A stretch of DNA of 64,000 nt from sequence record OZ035773.1, one strand, 5' to 3'. The notes under the pieces are model-generated. The model made no database searches and was not told where the DNA came from. It worked only from the letters and a program-made list of their open reading frames with translations. This document shows, piece by piece, positions 3,009-53,896 of this stretch. Every line of letters starts with the position of its first letter. Position 1 is the stretch's first letter. The stretch is from Justusliebigvirus VEcB. The translations under genes were made by a program, and so were the position numbers.

Positions 3009-5783
3009 TTAGTTTACCAGTTTATTTATATCTGGTAAAAGATTTATTTCACCTAAGAAATCACCTTCACCTTCCTCTAGCCAACTCTCATATGCTTGTG
3101 CATGATTATAGTTACCATCAAAAGAATCTGCAACAAATTTTTCTACAGTTTTTCGAGATGTGCCAGCACCAAATACACCAAGTTTAATACCATTGATCGG
3201 TAAAGTGGTGCTTGTGGGTACTTTCTCTGTTGCAACACGGTTGATATCTATAATCTCCTGTACGGTTGTATTCCATTGTAAGCATTTAACACAACGGGTA
3301 TGCGCTACATACAGTAGGTTTCGCTCTGCCTCTTCTAGTCCTACCCATTCACCAGTCTTTTTATCATAATTGGAAGGAAAATCATTAGCAACAATAACCT
3401 GATCCCACTCCAAACCTTTAGACTTGTGTGCTGTAGTCAATGTGACTTTTGCTGTAGGAGAATTTCTATGCGTTCTAAGGGTATGTGCTATAGTGTTTGC
3501 CTTACCAGAAACTACAATGTTTAACAAGCGTTTAGCATCTGGATCAGCCTCTGCACACTCAACAAATTCATCCCAGTCTGCGTAAGGTAATACAGTTTCA
3601 TGTTTTACTTTCTCAATATCTCCTCTCCGAAGAGCATTAACACTATCTACCATAGAGATAAAATCCCTGGTATCTACGTTAATAATAATTTCTTCCCCAT
3701 CTGCAATACGATCCATTGCCTCCATAAGCAAGGTTAAATTCTTGCGAAAGATGATAGTGTAAGGTTTTGTATAGTCTACAACATCTGATTTGTAGCTACC
3801 TACTACAGTATCAAAGCCTTTACCAACCAAAGGATGACGCAAAGGTTCTTTATCGCTTAAAATCATATTGGCAATGTTTGCCACTTTGGGGCCAAAACGG
3901 AAGCAAGCAGTTAATGGAAGTTCTGCCCCATACTTAGCTGTTTCAATCATCATATTAGAGCTACCTCTAAATTGATAAATGCAGTTGTGGCTAAGAATTT
4001 CATTGCCAAAGAAGTTAGCAGTATCCTCTACTTCAATATCATAATAGATACCCTCACTATCTACAATGTCCACAATCTCTTCTGCCGTTACAGTATCACC
4101 ATCTTTTACCAACACAGACATGCCTTTAAACAAACCCGCTGCCGGAATTAAGTTATATTTGGCACTGTTCACAGAGGACATGCATTCTTTTAAAGATGCA
4201 AACGGAACTATTTCAAGGATCTTTTGTGCAAAACTCAATGCTTCACGATAAGAATTGAAATATTTACGTACACGGTAACGACCTTCCAATTTAGCAGCAC
4301 TTACGCTTACACCTGCTTTAATCAGTGAAGAATAGATCGGCATTTCACTTTCTGTCCACTCAAAACTAACTTGTGTTCCTTTACAACCTTGCGCTCGCAA
4401 AGTCACTGTTAGCATTTTTCTTTCATCTACTGCACAATTGATGCTGTGCCAGTGTGGATAAGCAAAATGATAATCTTTATCCTCTAAAAGTTTAAAACCA
4501 TTTTGTCCGAATTGTTCAAAGATGTTATTGATCTTTTCTTGATTAATGCCGCGTGAACTTGCTTCAAATACACAAGTAGGAATGCCATATTGTAAACTGT
4601 AAGCCATTTCTTTTTCCATAGCAGCTTCACGGTTTTCAACAATATCCAACACCCATAATTTCTGTGCTTTTTCAGAACGTGTACGTTGCCCCAGTTTAGA
4701 AAAACCTTCTTTATCATCGAATTTGTTAGTGATCCCTACTCGGAAACCTAAATCTTTCCTCCACATTAGGTATACCACCATCTGATCATCTTTCAGAACA
4801 TAGGATGAAGCCCAAATACGATGGTTATGTGTCATATCTAAAGTTTTACCTGTGGCAGTAATAATATTCCTACCTTTTGTACGTGTAGATAAAGTCTTAT
4901 TTGTTACTTTTCTAAATGTAATTTTACCATTAGAATAAGACTCTACCTTATCACCGATTTGTAGGTCTTTCATTGTAACCTGACCATTCTCGGTATTAAG
5001 TACCGTGTTTTCCGACACACATTGGAATTCGTCACCCACTACCACAATTTGTTTTGCAGATTTAGCATTTCGCAGAATAGACAAGAATGCAGGGTTAACA
5101 TCCTGGAATTCATCACCAAAAATAATATCATAACCAAGATCAGCACCAGACAATTCAAACAATTTTACATAGGTGTCATGCGTCATCAAAGTATCTGTAT
5201 TAGGATCAATGCGCTCTCGCCACAATTGTTTTGCATACTTAACTACTTCTGTAATTAGTTTGTGTTCGTTAATACCTTTTCTTTTAATATCTGCAAGATG
5301 TACACTAGGAAAATGTTTACGGCTGATAAAAGGATCATCCGAAAATTCAAACTTACCTACGGTTTGCTTGATCATTAAACCGATCATAGCACGAGTTAAA
5401 AGTGTTTTCCCTCGTTTATCAATAAGATTATTAATCTTAAATTTCTTTGCTATCTCGCTACCTGTACCTGCAACGTTAACATACTGTCCTTCTGGTCGTG
5501 ACAGTTTTGCACGTAAACGATGGTCCAGGAATTGATAGCAAATAGAATGCAATGTACGGCATTCTACATTTAGTGGCATCTTACGTCGTGCTTCTTCTGC
5601 CATGCTTTTATTGAAAGCTAAGTAAAGAATGCGATCTTCTGTACTGTTAGCCAGCAAATAAAGTGTTGACGTTTTGCCTGATCCAGATTTAGCTTGGATA
5701 GTTAAAAAGCGATGGTCTGGAAAAGCCTCCTTAATAGCTGTTTGCTCTTCTGTTGGAGTGAAGCTCAACTCTTTCTTAGCCAT
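3009..5783 (-). CDS. UvrD/PcrA-like SF1 DNA helicase, interrupted by an intein
   Basis: Walker A AKSGSGKTST, motif II GDEFQD, motif III GDEFQ|CIYQFRG split by in-frame insert; start placed at ATG 5783 (SD AAGAGAGG), track ORF extends 13 codons further. Confidence 0.8.
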   Translation of the reverse strand: MAKKELSFTPTEEQTAIKEAFPDHRFLTIQAKSGSGKTSTLYLLANSTEDRILYLAFNKSMAEEARRKMPLNVECRTLHSICYQFLDHRLRAKLSRPEGQYVNVAGTGSEIAKKFKINNLIDKRGKTLLTRAMIGLMIKQTVGKFEFSDDPFISRKHFPSVHLADIKRKGINEHKLITEVVKYAKQLWRERIDPNTDTLMTHDTYVKLFELSGADLGYDIIFGDEFQDVNPAFLSILRNAKSAKQIVVVGDEFQCVSENTVLNTENGQVTMKDLQIGDKVESYSNGKITFRKVTNKTLSTRTKGRNIITATGKTLDMTHNHRIWASSYVLKDDQMVVYLMWRKDLGFRVGITNKFDDKEGFSKLGQRTRSEKAQKLWVLDIVENREAAMEKEMAYSLQYGIPTCVFEASSRGINQEKINNIFEQFGQNGFKLLEDKDYHFAYPHWHSINCAVDERKMLTVTLRAQGCKGTQVSFEWTESEMPIYSSLIKAGVSVSAAKLEGRYRVRKYFNSYREALSFAQKILEIVPFASLKECMSSVNSAKYNLIPAAGLFKGMSVLVKDGDTVTAEEIVDIVDSEGIYYDIEVEDTANFFGNEILSHNCIYQFRGSSNMMIETAKYGAELPLTACFRFGPKVANIANMILSDKEPLRHPLVGKGFDTVVGSYKSDVVDYTKPYTIIFRKNLTLLMEAMDRIADGEEIIINVDTRDFISMVDSVNALRRGDIEKVKHETVLPYADWDEFVECAEADPDAKRLLNIVVSGKANTIAHTLRTHRNSPTAKVTLTTAHKSKGLEWDQVIVANDFPSNYDKKTGEWVGLEEAERNLLYVAHTRCVKCLQWNTTVQEIIDINRVATEKVPTSTTLPINGIKLGVFGAGTSRKTVEKFVADSFDGNYNHAQAYESWLEEGEGDFLGEINLLPDINKLVN
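3984..5021 (-). mobile_element. intein (346 aa) within helicase motif III
   Basis: Insert begins with Cys (CVSENTVL), has TxxH block (THNHRIW), ends ...SHN followed by Cys (+1); flanked by contiguous helicase motif III halves. Confidence 0.7.
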
Positions 5784-9013: not shown

Positions 9014-9178
9014 TTAGCGTACAAAGTTAACTTCTGCTTCTTTCAGCTTTGACACTTCTACATAACCACCATGATCATCTTTAATCCATTCTTTTCCTTT
9101 ACGAATGATAACAGGATATGTAGAGTGAGTAAGTTTAGGTACAGATCTTTTTGTTTTAGTGATAGAAATGTTTTGCAT
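9014..9178 (-). CDS. small protein (54 aa), below track threshold
   Basis: Hand-translated MQNISITKTKRSVPKLTHSTYPVIIRKGKEWIKDDHGGYVEVSKLKEAEVNFVR; strong SD AAGGAGA 5 nt upstream. Confidence 0.45.
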   Translation of the reverse strand: MQNISITKTKRSVPKLTHSTYPVIIRKGKEWIKDDHGGYVEVSKLKEAEVNFVR

Positions 9179-9505: not shown

Positions 9506-9583
9506 AGTATTCTCCTATACAGTAATATACTCTGTTCCTGCCCCTCCATGAGTGACAGGAACAATATCTATAGAGAATACTAA

Positions 9584-9640
9584 CTCGCTTCGCTCGTCAC
9601 CTTTCAGGTTTAGGGTAGCATGTTTTTCTGAAAAAGTCAA
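9584..9640 (+). repeat. conserved ~55-bp non-coding element, copy A (CTCGCTTCGCTCG ... TTAGGGTAGCATGTTTTT)
   Basis: Near-identical element recurs at ~36487-36540 in the same orientation. Confidence 0.4.
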
Positions 9641-9669
9641 TACTCTCCACAAAACTTTACAAAATACTT

Positions 9670-9942
9670 TTACATAGGTACAACAGAATCTGTTTTGAAG
9701 TCGTACATATGATTTACACCTGTGATTTTTGACATAGAGATTGCACGTTTAGCACCTGCAATTACCTGGTCTGTCTTCTTAATCTCTTCACGGAACTTAC
9801 GTACAGTTAAAGAGAAGAAACGATGATCCATCCATTGACGATTCACACGATCACGCTTGAAGTGACGGAAATCTTCAATCTGTTTATTGCGTAATCGGCG
9901 CAGTACATGCAACAGTTTATAGTAAGGGTGTTTATTTTTCAT
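9670..9942 (-). CDS. hypothetical basic protein (90 aa)
   Basis: Track ORF; SD GGAGAATAA. Confidence 0.5.
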   Translation of the reverse strand: MKNKHPYYKLLHVLRRLRNKQIEDFRHFKRDRVNRQWMDHRFFSLTVRKFREEIKKTDQVIAGAKRAISMSKITGVNHMYDFKTDSVVPM

Positions 9943-16533: not shown

Positions 16534-16752
16534 TATTTTGAAAATTTTTATTTTTATAAAAAGGGGTGTGGGTTTCATGTACGGAAATTCACCCTCTGCA
16601 CAGTATACCCAGAGTAAGTATTATTCTATACTCTGTTAATAAAGTATTTAATTTGTTTGTTGGACTATGGTATCTGATCTTTAAAAGGCATACTATCTCT
16701 TAACTACTACTTATAACAGAACAGTAAAATCATTTTTATAAAAAGTACAAAA

Positions 16753-16949
16753 TTATTTAAAGTTTTTACAGATTTTTGGGTACAAATTTTGAAAATGAAA
16801 AGTTCAAGTTTGGTCAAAATTATTTAAAGTTTTTGTACGTATTTCTATCCAGATTTTGAAAATGAAAACTTCAATTTTTTAAAAATTCCCCAGTTTATTT
16901 AAAGTTTTTTTGCCTTTTTCCGTAGAAAAATCAAAAATGAAAAGTTCAA
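16753..16949. repeat. three tandem ~67-75-bp direct repeats (each with TTATTTAAAGTTTTT and TTGAAAATGAAAAGTTCAA)
   Basis: Both sub-motifs recur three times at ~67- and ~75-bp spacing. Confidence 0.6.
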
Positions 16950-16972
16950 TTTCGTGTTTTTATAGGTGTGTT

Positions 16973-17084
16973 AATGAGAATCATTTTCGTTTGTAAATGA
17001 GAATCATTATCATTTAATTATGTAAGTGATAATCATTCTCAGTAAGAGAATGAGAATCATTAGCAAATGAGAATTTTTCTCATT
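16973..17084. promoter_or_regulatory. cluster of five Fur-box-like palindromes (AATGAGAATCATT variants)
   Basis: Sites at ~16973, 16996, 17027, 17049, 17066; closest match TGAGAATCATTATCA vs Fur 7-1-7 core TGATAATnATTATCA. Confidence 0.4.
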
Positions 17085-17346
17085 TAGAGAATAACGCGCA
17101 GGGGTGGTGTTTGTCTCGCGCTCCCGTGTCCCCTCGCCATACAATAAGAATAGCATAACCAACAACAAAAGCAAGCGATTATTTTTATCTTTACATTTCT
17201 TTACAAATTTATTTTAGACGAGCCACCGGCGATCAACCTTCCAACCAGTGCCCCCTGGTATGTTAGCCCCGCCTTTACGCCGTGGGGGTGGCGTTTCCTC
17301 TTCTGTATGTAAAACAGTATAAGCCCGATCCCTGGGCTTGTCAAGA

Positions 17347-17613
17347 TTATTTTTTGTTTTCTTGCCAGGATAGGACACCTAACCAAAAATACATGTCGCC
17401 CCGCGCCCCTGGCGGGATCTTGCTTTCCCCGCCGCCACTGCAAGCCCATAGATAACCATTAGCGAACGGATCAAAATGATCTATTTCTTCCACCTTATGA
17501 TCGCCCAGGTTGAGAACGGTTTCAACCTTTAAGCCCGTTGCGCTTGCTACCTGGTGCACCGTGCCGCCTTGCCAGCCTAATGAGTGCATGAGGTGTAGAG
17601 TAGGATTTGTCAT
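17347..17613 (-). CDS. hypothetical protein (88 aa) in GC-rich islet
   Basis: Track ORF; SD AAAGGGCGA; local GC content far above the rest of the window; coding status uncertain. Confidence 0.3.
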   Translation of the reverse strand: MTNPTLHLMHSLGWQGGTVHQVASATGLKVETVLNLGDHKVEEIDHFDPFANGYLWACSGGGESKIPPGARGDMYFWLGVLSWQENKK

Positions 17614-25823: not shown

Positions 25824-26213
25824 ATGCGCAACCTGGTTTCTGTTTCTAACGTTGAAAAATTTCAATCCTTACAGGGTATCGTTAACAACGTAGCGCCTTT
25901 TTTAGTAAACGGCTTGATCGCAAAGATGAAAAATAAACATCATGCGGCATGGTCTGCTTACTGCTTTGATAATGATGAAAAAGCGGCTGAAATGATGTTA
26001 GATATGCTGTTAGATAGTGTAGAAACATCTTTACCGGAAAACATCGCAGAAGAGATCACCTATCGTTATAATATGGCGATCACTTACCAGGAGGTTGCGC
26101 AATTCAACATGATGGATGATGACGAACAACAGGATCAGGAAATGTTCTGGGAGTATGCGGATCGTCAATCAGCTTTTGATGAAAAATTAGCGATGTATTA
26201 TAACGAATATTAA
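25824..26213 (+). CDS. hypothetical protein (129 aa)
   Basis: From ATG 25824 (MRNLVSVSNVEKF...); track ORF starts inside the hairpin. Confidence 0.55.
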   Translation: MRNLVSVSNVEKFQSLQGIVNNVAPFLVNGLIAKMKNKHHAAWSAYCFDNDEKAAEMMLDMLLDSVETSLPENIAEEITYRYNMAITYQEVAQFNMMDDDEQQDQEMFWEYADRQSAFDEKLAMYYNEY

Positions 26214-26226
26214 TACACGGTAAAAG

Positions 26227-26254
26227 AAAGGGGCGCACTAAGCGCCCTTTTTTG
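26227..26254 (+). terminator. rho-independent terminator
   Basis: GGGCGC-actaa-GCGCCC followed by TTTTTTG. Confidence 0.65.
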
Positions 26255-26400
26255 TATTCTTTTTCACAATGGAAGCGACACGTAAAGAATAGGCGTAAAG
26301 GTGGCGTAAAACCATCTAAAACCGACTGTAACCGCTTAAACAAGGTAGGAATGATTAATCACCTTACCAGGATGAAAAAGCTGTTATAAAGCTATCTAGG

Positions 26401-26697
26401 GTGTTTAAAGGTGACTTGGTTGAAGTTAGAACAACCGAAGGTTATAGCGACGATTATAAATGCGAGATTCATTTACACAACTGGTACACGGGTAAAACTT
26501 ATGCGCTGAATCATGCGTTTATCGGCAAGGTTGAATATAGAGAAATGATCGACGAAGAAACCGGGCAAGATTTTAGCGATCATGTTTATATTCGTTCAGA
26601 AACATTAGCCGAACGTTTGATCGAGAAAATGAAAGCAAAAAATAAAATTAATTTAGCTCATTGGATTGATATAACAAACGATCCAGCTTATAAGTAA
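26401..26697 (+). CDS. hypothetical protein (98 aa), GTG start
   Basis: Track ORF; weak RBS; start uncertain. Confidence 0.35.
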   Translation: MFKGDLVEVRTTEGYSDDYKCEIHLHNWYTGKTYALNHAFIGKVEYREMIDEETGQDFSDHVYIRSETLAERLIEKMKAKNKINLAHWIDITNDPAYK

Positions 26698-26712
26698 ATA
26701 ACATTTCATACC

Positions 26713-26739
26713 AGGGCGCTTATTGCGCCCTTTCTTTTT
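26713..26739 (+). terminator. rho-independent terminator closing the cassette array
   Basis: AGGGCGC-ttatt-GCGCCCT followed by TTCTTTTT. Confidence 0.65.
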
Positions 26740-26827
26740 ACCTAAATAAAGATGATAGCTTTTACCTATCAAAAACGTTCACCGAAAAAAGTGAATAGAT
26801 CGCGGTATCGAGCTAATCAAGGAGCAG

Positions 26828-26968
26828 ATGAACAACCATACCATGAAGATCATAAGGCGTTTACAGCGTGTTTTAGACCGTTTATTTTTAATTTCTTCAT
26901 GCAACTATAGGACAAAAACAGTCTTTTTCTTGTCTTTCCTCTTAAATGATAATCATTCTTATTTATAG
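26828..26968 (+). CDS. possible small ORF (46 aa) reading into a Fur-box-like site
   Basis: Hand-translated MNNHTMKIIRRLQRVLDRLFLISSCNYRTKTVFFLSFLLNDNHSYL; SD AAGGAG 3 nt upstream; speculative. Confidence 0.25.
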   Translation: MNNHTMKIIRRLQRVLDRLFLISSCNYRTKTVFFLSFLLNDNHSYL

Positions 26969-27015
26969 CTGATTATTTATGCAATAAACTGCATAATGCA
27001 ATAATGATAATCATT
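26945..27015. promoter_or_regulatory. two Fur-box-like palindromes (AATGATAATCATT)
   Basis: Sites at ~26945-26957 and ~27003-27015; second reads ATAATGATAATCATTCTTA vs Fur consensus GATAATGATAATCATTATC. Confidence 0.45.
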
Positions 27016-27385
27016 CTTAACTTAAGACCATCTAACTTATAAAATAATAAGTTATCTAACTAAATTAAAGCTAATTATCTTACTTTTATTTATAACATAC
27101 TGTTACTATCTTATTGATAACCTTATATTAAACAACAATAATCAATGTAAATCATTACTAAGCTAACTATAATCTATCTAACCATTAAAACTATAACTAT
27201 AATCTATCGAATTGTTGCACAAAGTAACTATTAAATTGTTAGTAACATTACTAAATAATTCACATCTTATCTATTTATGATCTAATCTTTACCTCCCTAT
27301 TTATTACCTAAATAACCATTTCATGTAGTAATCATTTCATACAATAACTATAACAAGAAATATAATTCGCAAGCGTATCATTAGC

Positions 27386-27539
27386 AGCCTATGCCGGACA
27401 CATAGGCGGCTAATAATAACGCAACTACACCCCCCCACATAATAACTATCGCCGATAGTTATTATTTGTGTTTATGTAGCTTGCAACAATTGCAAGCGCA
27501 ACAATATACATGGTATATTGTATTCCCTTACATTGTTGC
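27386..27539. repeat. cluster of four palindromes/hairpins
   Basis: GCCTATG-n7-CATAGGC (~27386-27406); 27-bp perfect palindrome ATAATAACTATCG-c-CGATAGTTATTAT (~27438-27464); GCTTGCAA-caa-TTGCAAGC (~27478-27496); CAATATAC-atg-GTATATTG nested in CGCAACAAT...ATTGTTGCG (~27496-27539). Confidence 0.55.
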
Positions 27540-27618
27540 GGTGCGTTATTATTAGCTAATGTTTAGAACATTGGCTATAATATAAGCTGCATATAATAAG
27601 CTATACAATAATAAACAT

Positions 27619-27654
27619 AATGAATAATGACACTGAAATGAATAATGACACTGA
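27619..27654. repeat. perfect tandem duplication of 18-bp unit AATGAATAATGACACTGA
   Basis: Two adjacent identical copies. Confidence 0.6.
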
Positions 27655-27794
27655 TGATCATAATGCGCCACCCTCCAGGGGCGCTATGTGAACACAAAGA
27701 AATCTTTCTTGTCAAGAAAAATATCATCATTATTGCGCAAAATTATTTACATCTGAATAGATGATTTTTCATACTATTGCCCCCATATAACTTA

Positions 27795-27853
27795 CTATTT
27801 GTTGCAATGTATTCCCCTATTTGTTGAGCATAGTTATAGCCTATTTGTTGAGC
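27795..27853. repeat. three iteron-like direct repeats CTATTTGTTG(AGC) at ~22-24-bp spacing
   Basis: Copies at ~27795, 27817, 27841 (about two helical turns apart). Confidence 0.55.
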
Positions 27854-27926
27854 CTACTTTCTTAAAAGCGCAATAAATCAGAATTATCTTGATTTTTAGG
27901 TAGTTTTATAGTATAGAAAATATGCA

Positions 27927-27942
27927 AATGATAATCATTATC
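27927..27942. promoter_or_regulatory. Fur-box-like palindrome, best match
   Basis: GCAAATGATAATCATTATC matches Fur consensus GATAATGATAATCATTATC at 17 of 19 positions; overlaps a possible promoter upstream of small ORF 28006. Confidence 0.45.
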
Positions 27943-28005
27943 AGCTATCTTCCACGGGTGGCACTATTTCACACCAGATCATTTCATTTGGCAAGGTGTA
28001 GATAG

Positions 28006-28110
28006 ATGTTTAGACTTGCCAAGTTATTGATTTACTTAGAATTTATCTGTTTTGTTGTAAGTAGAGCCTTTTTTGCTCAGAAAATAATCAAAAGTCTTAT
28101 AAGTCATTGA
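28006..28110 (+). CDS. possible 34-aa hydrophobic peptide flanked by Fur-box-like sites
   Basis: Hand-translated MFRLAKLLIYLEFICFVVSRAFFAQKIIKSLISH; SD AAGGTG 7 nt upstream; speculative. Confidence 0.3.
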   Translation: MFRLAKLLIYLEFICFVVSRAFFAQKIIKSLISH

Positions 28111-28140
28111 ATGATAATGCAAATGATAATTATTCTCATT
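28109..28140. promoter_or_regulatory. composite Fur-box-like site (overlapping GATAAT hexamers)
   Basis: GAATGATAATGCAAATGATAATTATTCTCATT. Confidence 0.4.
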
Positions 28141-28512
28141 GATATTTGAGGGGGACGGTCGGGAAAAATCGGGGGGCGCTGAAAATCGCGTTAAGCACCT
28201 CTCGCAAGCGAGCAGTATTTTGCGGCAAGTTATTGATATTATTGACTTTACGCTTATGAAAAGGGGGTGTGTCGAAATAAATCGGGTATACCGGAAAATT
28301 TTTGTGGCATAGATATTTATTTGTCTATATTATGTACAAAGGGGTGTGTTAAAAATATTAGGTATATATAGAATAATTGATAGGGAAATCCTATACTAAT
28401 TCCTCCATTAATGATGTTTCTATGTTGCTGTTCTTGTAATAGATGAAAAGACGCTGTATGATGTGTGGCATGAAACGTAATCCTACAACGTAATCTTATA
28501 AAGGAGTCTGAT

Positions 28513-28878
28513 ATGTGTGTTCCTCTTAGCAGTCCACTGCTGTTAGAATTTTACAAAGCATGGATGGAAGATCATTCCTCAATGCATCGTGAGAATGTTG
28601 GTTTGTGTAATTGCCTTATGGATTACCTGGCAACCACTATGTCAAAGAAAAAACCTACGGAAGAAGATATAGAACATTTCAAGATGGTTCGTAGCAAAAC
28701 GCTGGAAGAGATGAAACTGCAATTCACGTGTGCTGGGCTATCCTCCTTCCTACCCTTTAATTATGATCTTCTGTGTTATGAAGATGAAGGTAAGACACAT
28801 TCTTGCCATACCAACCCAAAGAGATTGCAGTGGGTGAAAGACAGAATCGAAGATGCAAATAATGCTTGCATTGAATAA
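28513..28878 (+). CDS. hypothetical protein, paralog family A (121 aa)
   Basis: SD AAGGAG; shares LLxFY..W...GLC.CL.D(F/Y)L ... (K/E)R(L/V)QWV.DRI.D with 30575 and 31853 ORFs. Confidence 0.6.
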   Translation: MCVPLSSPLLLEFYKAWMEDHSSMHRENVGLCNCLMDYLATTMSKKKPTEEDIEHFKMVRSKTLEEMKLQFTCAGLSSFLPFNYDLLCYEDEGKTHSCHTNPKRLQWVKDRIEDANNACIE

Positions 28879-28960
28879 AAATGTCTGTATAGTGGTTTGC
28901 ATACCGCGCACGACGCGTTTCCATTTTCAATAAAATGTTAGCATTATGGGGAGGTAGAAA

Positions 28961-29422
28961 ATGAGACAACTATCTATACTGGAAGCACATGTGCAATGTG
29001 TTGCAGATTATGTCAAAGAACACTCAAGTTTGTTGGATGTAACCTGTGCAGTGCAAAATGATGTAGGTATTGTCTGTGTGCGACATATCTTATCTGAAAC
29101 TCGTTATGAAGTATTTCGTGCCAAGTTGTTTGGATGTGATCAAGTGCATGTAAACTTCTTGGATTCCAATTTTCGTTATGCTTTAAAAAATATTGAGGAT
29201 TATCTTCCTTGCTCTCCGACCGGATATGTGATGATGGCAGCAAATGAAGTAACACCAAACAATAGTGAGCGGGAAACTTTGTTACGGAAGAAAATACGCC
29301 AACTGCAAGTGTTGAATGAACTGAAAGAAGAGATTGAAAAAGAACTGAAAGAAGATTTTGGTATGCTTCCAAAAGACGCTTTGAAATGGTTTGATGAACT
29401 AGGAGAGGAAAGTTATGAATAA
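28961..29422 (+). CDS. hypothetical protein, paralog family B (153 aa)
   Basis: SD GGGAGG; N-terminus similar to 35458 ORF (SLL.V...V.N..G.V.V.H.LS.T.Y.VF). Confidence 0.6.
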   Translation: MRQLSILEAHVQCVADYVKEHSSLLDVTCAVQNDVGIVCVRHILSETRYEVFRAKLFGCDQVHVNFLDSNFRYALKNIEDYLPCSPTGYVMMAANEVTPNNSERETLLRKKIRQLQVLNELKEEIEKELKEDFGMLPKDALKWFDELGEESYE

Positions 29423-52802: not shown

Positions 52803-53063
52803 TTACTCCGCAATCTGAGCCATGAATTCACGTAGTTCAGAAAAACCTCCTACGTGGGTTAGCTGTTCACCATCTTCCACAAAAATCTGAGGAAATGTGC
52901 GTGGTAGAACACCTGTTTTCTCTAAAACCAGATTCTGAATCTGATCTAAAGAATAGTCTTCATCTAAGGTAAGGTATTTAAAATCCTGTTCACGCTGTTC
53001 TAGTAGAATCTTAGCGTTAGTGCAGAAAGGACAATTTGGTTTACCGTAGATAATAAAATTCAT
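52803..53063 (-). CDS. glutaredoxin-like redoxin (CPFC active site)
   Basis: From ATG 53063 (SD AAGGAG): MNFIIYGKPNCPFCTNAK...GGFSELREF; sits beside RNR genes. Confidence 0.7.
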   Translation of the reverse strand: MNFIIYGKPNCPFCTNAKILLEQREQDFKYLTLDEDYSLDQIQNLVLEKTGVLPRTFPQIFVEDGEQLTHVGGFSELREFMAQIAE

Positions 53064-53065
53064 TT

Positions 53066-53896
53066 TCACTCCTTGTTTAAAAGTATAGTTAAAGTTCTTA
53101 CAATACCGCTATCAACACTTCGCGGATTTAAAGTAGGATCTGTTTTTAAATAAGATGTTGCTGGTCTGACTGCTTTGGAATTATAGGTTGAAGCAGACAC
53201 AGGATTAACTGTAACAGATAAATCTATAACAAGAAATATCTTACGTGCAAAATCATACCAAGAAATATAATCTGCACCTGCATAGTGTACAATTTTACTA
53301 TTTACACCATCTTTTACAAGTTTAAAAATTGTTTCTGCAAGATCAGGTGCATAAGTAGGACATGACAAATGATCACATACTACATTAAATTCTTTTTGAC
53401 CACCGTTGTAGCGTTCCAACATAGTTTTCAAAAAGTTATGTCCAAATTCACTATAAACAGAAGCTGTTCTGATAATAAGTGCTGTAGGACAAACTGTTTG
53501 TACTAAAGTTTCACCTAATTGTTTACTGTAACCGTAGGTGTTCAAGGGGTTTGTTTTACTATCTTCTGTGCCAGCAACATGCCCATCAAAAACATAGTCT
53601 GTTGAAATATGTACAAACTGTATCAGTAAATCATTACATGCTTTGGCAATGTTTGTTGCACCGTATGCATTAACATTTATACAGGTGTTAACATCTTCTT
53701 CAGCTTTATCTACTGCCGTGTAAGCCGCACAATTCACAACAACATCAGGCACATGCTGTACAAGACTATTCATAACATCTTTAAAGTTGGTAATGTCTAC
53801 ATCACTTGCTTCAATCAAAATAACATCTTCGGGCGCAACTTTTGCCAAAGACTGTCCTAATTGACCTTTTGAACCAAAGATTAAAAATTTTGTCAA
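53066..53896 (-). CDS. rmlD: dTDP-4-dehydrorhamnose reductase
   Basis: N-terminal FLIFGSKGQLGQSL Rossmann motif, ~276 aa, last gene of rml operon. Confidence 0.75.
   Translation of the reverse strand: MTKFLIFGSKGQLGQSLAKVAPEDVILIEASDVDITNFKDVMNSLVQHVPDVVVNCAAYTAVDKAEEDVNTCINVNAYGATNIAKACNDLLIQFVHISTDYVFDGHVAGTEDSKTNPLNTYGYSKQLGETLVQTVCPTALIIRTASVYSEFGHNFLKTMLERYNGGQKEFNVVCDHLSCPTYAPDLAETIFKLVKDGVNSKIVHYAGADYISWYDFARKIFLVIDLSVTVNPVSASTYNSKAVRPATSYLKTDPTLNPRSVDSGIVRTLTILLNKE

Follow-up and report, generated by a model that had tools for sequence, protein, structure and literature searches.

Which protein reads the palindromes that stand at the borders of the early genes in Justusliebigvirus VEcB? 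The question arises from a gene-free part of the phage genome, which was analysed here within a stretch of 64,000 nucleotides of sequence record OZ035773.1 (the window). An earlier note, made from the letters of this DNA, had described four palindromes at 26945-28140 as resembling binding sites of Fur, had assigned them to the same family as a cluster at 16973-17084, and had proposed one regulator for both groups, either host Fur or a phage protein of similar specificity. The four sites, termed boxes A to D (Table 1), are all found at the positions claimed and all in DNA free of open reading frames (ORFs), and they form one palindrome family with the five boxes of the first cluster. The sites exist, are enriched and conserved, and resemble Fur boxes by independent criteria, and boxes C and D are located in a terminal repeat. 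The occurrence of the family is strongly non-random, and a shared regulator is the best reading of the two groups. Of the two regulators that had been proposed, host Fur is the best candidate, and we lean towards the view that boxes A to D and the five boxes at 16973-17084 serve as operators of host Fur, through which transcription at these borders responds to iron.

A megablast search with positions 26000-29000 retrieved 134 phage records at 80-96% identity, all of which are phi92-like or phAPEC8-like myoviruses of the Stephanstirmvirinae. The closest of them belong to the genus Justusliebigvirus, and the window represents a virulent, phi92-like coliphage. A protein search of IMG/VR returned a single locus, and relatives were therefore taken from annotated phage records. 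The second set of boxes (A to D) occupies a 1.7-kb stretch without long open frames in an AT-rich region (33% GC), which is delimited on the left by the terminator of the upstream early-gene array and on the right by a further array of small plus-strand genes that starts at 28513.

Table 1. Boxes and other features of the window, with positions counted from its first nucleotide.
Feature	Position	Strand	Remarks
Fur-type box A, AATGATAATCATTCTTATT	26945-26963		9-1-9 register, 1 mismatch; 16.6 bits
Fur-type box B, AATGATAATCATTCTTAAC	27003-27021		9-1-9 register, 3 mismatches; 19.4 bits in the classical register 27000-27018
Fur-type box C, AATGATAATCATTATCAGC	27927-27945		9-1-9 register; inside the terminal repeat; 20.8 bits, top matrix match of the window
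Fur-type box D, AATGATAATTATTCTCATT	28122-28140		0 mismatches to the 9-1-9 form AATGAKAATNATTMTCATT; inside the terminal repeat
Weak box D', GATAATGCAAATGATAATT	28113-28131		overlaps D, one hexamer step upstream; 5 mismatches; 12.0 bits
First box cluster, same family	16973-17084		five boxes: 16973, 16996, 17025, 17049, 17066
Direct terminal repeat, 343 bp	27851-28193		by homology to the annotated repeat of phi92
Sigma-70-like promoter (predicted), TTGGCA-17-TAGACT	27988-28016	+	between C and D; points toward D and the early genes
Segment with 9-bp inverted repeats GGCACTATT / AGTAGAGCC at its ends	27960-28068		~105 bp, between C and D
34-aa ORF of the earlier note	28006-28110	+	bracketed by C and D; probably no gene
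Intrinsic terminator	26713-26731	+	closes the upstream early-gene array after a Gp30.8-like gene; annotated as terminator in relatives
Structured element, six helices, multi-branch	27380-27558	-	between boxes B and C; no Rfam family
Very conserved non-coding block, ~215 bp	17093-17310		between the first cluster and the leftward promoter 17316-17344
Conserved sigma-70 promoter, TTGACA-17-TATACT	17316-17344	-	fires leftward toward the first cluster
88-aa protein, gp224, phrog_19316	17613-17347	-	adjoins the first cluster; no function from Pfam and PHROGs

Fur-type boxes in two gene-free stretches

Three reference patterns were used for the Fur box, namely the classical consensus GATAATGATAATCATTATC, the 9-1-9 form AATGATAATnATTATCATT and the 7-1-7 form TGATAATnATTATCA. 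The match to the Fur consensus at 17 of 19 positions, which the earlier note had reported, belongs to box C in its classical register (27924-27942, GCAAATGATAATCATTATC), and this site contains a perfect 7-1-7 core, TGATAATCATTATCA. In dinucleotide shuffles of the 64-kb window, the classical consensus is expected at 0.03 positions with up to three mismatches and at 0.53 positions with up to four, compared with 6 and 10 positions observed; within the region of the second set itself, three matches compare with 0.05 in such shuffles. The 9-1-9 pattern matches ten times (0.44 expected), a count that is reached in none of 100 shuffles. The motif is thus far more frequent than expected, whereas a frequency equal to expectation had been named in the earlier note as a point against its proposal. 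Nine of the ten 9-1-9 matches are confined to two ORF-free stretches, and a close relative (alia, OZ035799.1) has no match in the remaining ~85 kb of its genome.

A position weight matrix (PWM) was constructed from ten natural Gram-negative Fur boxes (PMC10665472) and contains no phage sites. A scan of the kind that the earlier note had suggested for the whole genome was run with this matrix over the 64-kb window, and the best seven matches are all located within the two clusters. Boxes A to D score 15.5-20.8 bits, compared with 5.4-19.1 bits for the training sites in leave-one-out scoring and with a null maximum of 14.2 +/- 1.5 bits. Two isolated Fur-like sites, at 4463-4481 (16.0 bits) and 53049-53067 (16.6 bits), are located inside long minus-strand open frames and are probably without function. 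At the position of the weak box D', phage phiWec190 and an IMG/VR relative exhibit the classical arrangement GATAAT-GATAAT-T-ATTCTC. An orientation bias of the boxes, with C at the centre on the plus strand wherever the centre is C or G, was considered as a sign of action at the RNA level and rejected, since the boxes of phage ESCO13 are G-centred.

The consensus of the phage family is a perfect palindrome, AAATGAGAATCATTCTCATTT, and is identical to the Fur consensus of Xanthomonas, AATGAgAATcATTctCATT (PMC1790865). The Shewanella and Bacillus Fur consensuses differ from it at one half-site position, which is marked as weakly conserved there (PMC1790865), and the aerobactin-type box GATAATGAGAATCATTATT has a G at that position too (PMC10665472). 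The phage motif agrees with the Fur matrix at every informative position. The exact 19-mer is present in more than 120 bacterial species, and the Pfam domains of 41 ORFs adjoining it (counted with no random-ORF control) include Plug in seven, FUR in four and Peripla_BP_2 in two, as well as FeoB, FTR1, FecCD, HemS, ChuX, TonB_C, imelysin, a ferritin-like domain and a siderophore monooxygenase in one each; these neighbours are plainly those of an iron regulon. A tblastn search with E. coli Fur in 50,697 phage records (E <= 0.01) matched 34 records, none of which belongs to the Stephanstirmvirinae or the Vequintavirinae. At the level of sequence, the sites are therefore Fur-like, as judged from the PWM, the consensus, the bacterial context and the lack of a phage Fur, and the sites as such are likely to be bound by host Fur.

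Three of the four boxes of the second set are conserved beyond the genus. In an alignment with six sequences of the sister genus Phapecoctavirus (54% mean column identity), boxes A, C and D exhibit 79-80% identity, compared with 49% for the non-coding region as a whole. Box A is conserved in the six sequences as AATGATAACCATTATCATC, and box C is conserved in this genus as AATAATAATCATTCTCAT. Both C and D are invariant in seven Justusliebigvirus sequences, and the perfect box D is identical in eight of eight sequences (the window and seven others) in an alignment of the two genera. The rV5-like phage TH18 carries degenerate copies of boxes A and B in the same place. In the first cluster, the box nearest to the neighbouring conserved block is invariant in 15 phages from two subfamilies, the hosts of which are Escherichia, Salmonella, Cronobacter and Pectobacterium, and the number of extra boxes upstream of it varies from 0 to 4 among relatives. 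This invariant box fills an 18-bp spacer between TTGAAT and a -10-like nnGAAT, in which GAAT is invariant.

The terminal repeat and the sites between boxes C and D

In the earlier note, the sites were assigned to the borders of the early-gene array. This placement is incomplete, as boxes C and D are situated inside a direct terminal repeat of 343 bp, which the note had missed. In the annotation of phi92 (FR775895.2), the left repeat covers 1-343 and the right repeat covers 148270-148612, and both copies align with the repeat of the window from the first to the last base. Boxes C and D are 77 and 53 bp from its left and right edges, respectively, and the blocks in which these edges fall are conserved across genera. 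As parts of the repeat, boxes C and D and the 34-aa ORF are present at both ends of the virion DNA. Three copies of CTATTTGTTG occupy 27795-27850, the last of which ends exactly at the left edge of the repeat; these copies may be recognition sites of the packaging enzyme.

Also missing from the earlier note were an element resembling a promoter, an invertible segment and a structured element, all of which belong to this region. The promoter-like element between C and D is the sole such site at one alignment column in eight of eight sequences from two genera (scores 5.9-11.6), with TTGACA as its -35 in phi92 and Phapecoctavirus, and it is predicted to function as a promoter. The segment bounded by 9-bp inverted repeats is inverted in phage AMO3598 (about 1330-1470 of the retrieved piece), the forward strand of which can be aligned with the window and with phage PATM once these are reverse-complemented. 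This inversion could be a one-off recombination or a switch.

The 34-aa ORF, which the earlier note had offered as a candidate hydrophobic peptide, exists between boxes C and D as described and is probably not a gene. Its frame is intact in the window, phi92, PATM, inny and Antha, and broken in 8 of 13 relatives: the six Phapecoctavirus (phAPEC8-type) sequences have a stop after 7 codons, KMB37 has a nonsense change (CAG to TAG at codon 25), and AMO3598 has the frame split by the inversion, with the C-terminal third replaced. The intact copies differ by about 5 non-synonymous changes versus 1 synonymous change, and the ATG is located upstream of the -10 of the promoter-like site. A toxin-like peptide was rejected because the reading frame is not conserved.

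Host Fur and the alternatives

The same motif occurs in unrelated phages. In T5 (NC_005859.1), five Fur-type matches are found within 170 bp (record positions 9552-9715), compared with 0 expected; this array is located inside the annotated injection-stop signal of the left terminal repeat, beside DnaA boxes, and one of its matches is the same 21-mer as window positions 16995-17015. In the annotated left terminal repeat of the T5-like phage chee24, a perfect 21-bp palindrome, AAATGAGAATGATTCTCATTT (record position about 9152-9170), is located directly 3' of a terminator hairpin. A perfect box is present in more than 120 IMG/VR viral contigs, and 29 of the 119 contigs retrieved contain 3-8 boxes within 400 bp. 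In one 62-kb IMG/VR contig, to which no cultured phage gave a match, 540 bp (2215-2751) contain 9 boxes. The recurrence of one sequence in unrelated phages makes a shared host protein likely. Host Fur is the best candidate because of the sequence itself, the PWM scores, the bacterial context, the conservation in two subfamilies, the recurrence in T5 and the lack of a phage Fur homologue. A broader proposal, which we put forward tentatively and hold to be somewhat doubtful, is that Fur-operator arrays recur, by convergent acquisition, in unrelated virulent phages of enterobacteria, in the non-coding terminal-repeat DNA that enters the cell first, with Fur as a general host factor at the start of infection. 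The phi92/rV5-like myoviruses, the T5-like siphoviruses and many uncultivated phages suggest such convergence, in which Fur may serve iron sensing or act as a roadblock or anchor on incoming DNA.

If the boxes are iron-responsive operators, Fur dimers loaded with Fe2+ would bind them in an iron-replete infected cell and would leave them in an iron-starved cell, and transcription starting at or crossing the gene-free borders would become iron-responsive. Box C lies about 45 bp upstream and box D about 100 bp downstream of the promoter-like site, and Fur on D, possibly bridged to C, would block the transcripts of this promoter. Boxes A and B follow the terminator of the upstream array at a distance of about 215-290 bp (about 215 bp for box A) and would act on transcription crossing that border. 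That Fur occupies the boxes during infection, that the promoters are correctly assigned and that regulation runs in this direction is inferred.

The Fur-operator reading is weakest in its regulatory geometry, and a number of observations weigh against it. Repression by Fur usually goes with a box that overlaps the promoter, and no promoter was found under boxes A to D by inspection, by consensus scan or by cross-species scoring. The promoter-like site between C and D has a well-conserved -35 and a poorly conserved -10, and it rides on the segment that is inverted in AMO3598; such an inversion in one relative is easier to reconcile with a symmetric roadblock than with a classic operator. The right halves of boxes A and B are poor. 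Box B is degenerate in Phapecoctavirus and is therefore the least secure site, and boxes A, C and D rank within the top ~10% of the conserved 19-mers of the region, not at its top. At the first cluster, one clade carries CTGAAT, in which the critical -11 A of the -10-like nnGAAT is lost. No iron-related gene is located downstream of the boxes, and the rationale for a virulent phage to let iron-replete hosts repress its early transcription is not obvious.

Alternatively, Fur, or another abundant host protein, may bind the boxes for architecture and not for iron sensing, either as a roadblock or insulator that reinforces terminators at the borders between transcription units or in a nucleoprotein structure at the genome ends that serves DNA entry, end protection, replication or packaging. 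The positions of C and D close to the edges of the terminal repeat, of A and B behind a terminator, and of the T5-like box right after a terminator hairpin agree with such a role, as do the T5 array in an untranslated injection-stop region beside DnaA boxes and the symmetric placement of boxes around the invertible, promoter-bearing segment. The first cluster lies downstream of two conserved leftward promoters and could stop antisense read-through, and the three CTATTTGTTG repeats that abut the left edge of the repeat suggest a packaging region. We nevertheless regard an architectural role as unlikely: 11 kb separate the first cluster from the terminal repeat, relatives differ in their number of boxes (1 to 5), and no known system ties Fur to DNA entry or packaging. 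By sequence, such a role is also hard to tell from that of an iron-responsive operator. Less probable again is that a phage-encoded DNA-binding protein recognises the palindromes and that their likeness to Fur boxes reflects mimicry or coincidence. A 10-1-10 palindrome suits any dimeric regulator, most early genes are without known function, and gp224, which is very conserved and has a stretch resembling a helix-turn-helix (HTH), is encoded beside the first cluster. However, gp224 is found in 151 records, compared with 235 for the conserved block, and is missing from Cronobacter CR3-type phages that keep the boxes. The same 19-21-mer is also shared by T5-like phages, which are unrelated, and by more than 120 other viral contigs, among which no search for a shared phage protein was made, and the motif fits the Fur matrix at every informative position.

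Multiple high-scoring tandem boxes that vary in number among relatives, and arrays of 3-8 boxes in many viral contigs, would also suit a Fur sponge, in which phage DNA would titrate Fur as it replicates, at nine or more strong boxes per genome and hundreds of copies, and would derepress host iron uptake to the advantage of the phage. The principle is that of the Fur titration assay, in which multicopy boxes titrate Fur. Such a function seems quite improbable here, as the key boxes keep a fixed position with respect to the conserved elements beside them, which a pure sponge would not require. Chance matches in AT-rich non-coding DNA can be practically dismissed. The 33% GC of the region and the isolated matches in coding DNA at 4463 and 53049 are of the kind that chance would produce, but dinucleotide shuffles give 0.03-0.5 matches where 6-10 are observed, and 0.05 where the region itself has 3, and the sites are conserved across genera and subfamilies.

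Neighbouring elements, known systems and implications

The non-coding block beside the first cluster exhibits 70-93% nucleotide identity across the Stephanstirmvirinae and the Vequintavirinae and is present in 235 records. No Rfam family corresponds to it, and a host origin (tested with 17085-17350) was rejected, with 0 matches in 5,426 E. coli genomes. Covariation gave 1-2 compensatory pairs on either strand and no strand assignment, the sequence being too conserved. The leftward promoter next to the block occurs in 15 of 15 phages, all of which retain its -35 and -10 and differ in the spacer. A second leftward sigma-70 promoter aimed at the first cluster is located inside the block, and both are conserved in the 15 phages. 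The gp224 protein is 94-99% identical between genera that are otherwise at about 75% nucleotide identity, and its HTH-like stretch, GGTVHQVASATGL, was judged by eye. Searches of Pfam and PHROGs gave no function for gp224 or for the neighbouring early proteins, and gp224 was rejected as the binder of the boxes for the mismatch in distribution described above. Upstream of the first cluster, 16560-16960 contains the repeated units TTGAAAATGAAAAsTTCAA and ATTATTTAAAGTTTTT, and the Vequintavirinae have a different repeat, TCTCGATCGA...CGTATT, at that place; the repeats at 16560-16960 may be iterons of a replication origin.

In the second gene-free stretch, the last gene before the terminator (ORF 26401-26697) belongs to the Pfam family Phage_30_8. 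Two blocks are nearly invariant across genera, namely GCGGTATCGAGCTAATCAA at 26802-26820, right behind the terminator, and GGGGTGTGTTAAAAATATTAGGTATATATAGAATAATTGATAGG at 28340-28386, 5' of the gene that comes first on the right side of the repeat. The inverted repeat TTATGCA-N6-TGCATAA (26977-26996), located between boxes A and B, exhibits 93% identity to Phapecoctavirus and is among the most conserved 19-mers of the region. The structured element between boxes B and C comprises 61 pairs, with 97.6% of cells paired and compensatory changes at 9 pairs in two genera, compared with 24-51% in slid controls. Several G-U pairs are possible on the minus strand alone, and the structure may be an RNA or a single-stranded DNA element. 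Rfam gave no match at gathering score in the whole window and chance-level matches alone at E <= 5 in both regions, and an ARAGORN scan for tRNA and tmRNA found nothing.

Fur boxes are textbook operators of bacteria and are known on prophages ahead of cargo genes. Gram-negative Fur boxes, such as the aerobactin operator GATAATGAGAATCATTATT and the 9-1-9 form AATGATAATnATTATCATT, have the same 19-bp inverted repeat as the phage sites, with G or T tolerated at heptamer position 4. They are likewise arranged in tandem and overlapping in hexamer steps, and the phage scores fall within the range of proven sites. Unlike them, the phage sites belong to a strictly virulent phage and occupy DNA free of genes, with two of the sites in a terminal repeat and no iron gene downstream. 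Shiga toxin 1 of temperate phages is iron-regulated. In lambdoid prophages and coliphages, a Fur box is located ahead of sitABCD (PMC6969025). Such cargo of temperate phages resembles the present case in that a host Fur box stands on phage DNA, but it consists of one box at a bacterial-type accessory operon of a prophage, whereas here a lytic phage has arrays of boxes in its control regions and at its genome ends. The genomes of lytic cyanophages contain NtcA and PhoB boxes ahead of recognisable metabolic genes. In these cyanophages, as proposed here, a virulent phage is wired to a starvation regulator of its host, although the regulator, the nutrient and the host group differ. RyhB is a non-coding RNA gene under a Fur box; the invariant box of the first cluster similarly adjoins a non-coding block that is very conserved and has convergent promoters on its flanks, but this block, unlike RyhB, has neither similarity to host DNA nor an Rfam family.

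A parallel in position is offered by T5. The injection-stop (iss) region of its left terminal repeat is untranslated and contains repeats, palindromes and DnaA boxes (Davison, bioRxiv 10.1101/866236); Fur is never mentioned in that preprint. Like the phi92-type repeat, the iss region represents conserved host-factor sites in non-coding terminal-repeat DNA of a virulent coliphage, and it has the same Fur-type boxes. The T5 repeat, however, is 10 kb long and contains pre-early genes, compared with 343 bp here, and two-step DNA transfer is not known for phi92-like phages. A literature search, with the phi92 genome paper outside its reach, retrieved no report on Fur sites in phi92-like, Phapecoctavirus, rV5-like, T5-like or lytic phages, and none of conserved Fur-box arrays in gene-free control regions or terminal repeats of strictly virulent phages.

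The analysis fixes the genome ends within the window by homology and removes a spurious small gene. For T5, the motif in the injection-stop signal, a region long unexplained, provides a new angle on first-step transfer, a question more than 50 years old in which Fur may have a part. For VEcB, the sites suggest that the phage reads or exploits the iron status of its host. If Fur binds, a large group of broad-host-range and therapeutically relevant coliphages (phi92-, phAPEC8- and rV5-like) would tie the onset of infection to the iron status of the host. This status is the dominant signal of the gut and of infected tissue, and such a coupling, if true, would therefore bear on the performance of these phages in vivo.

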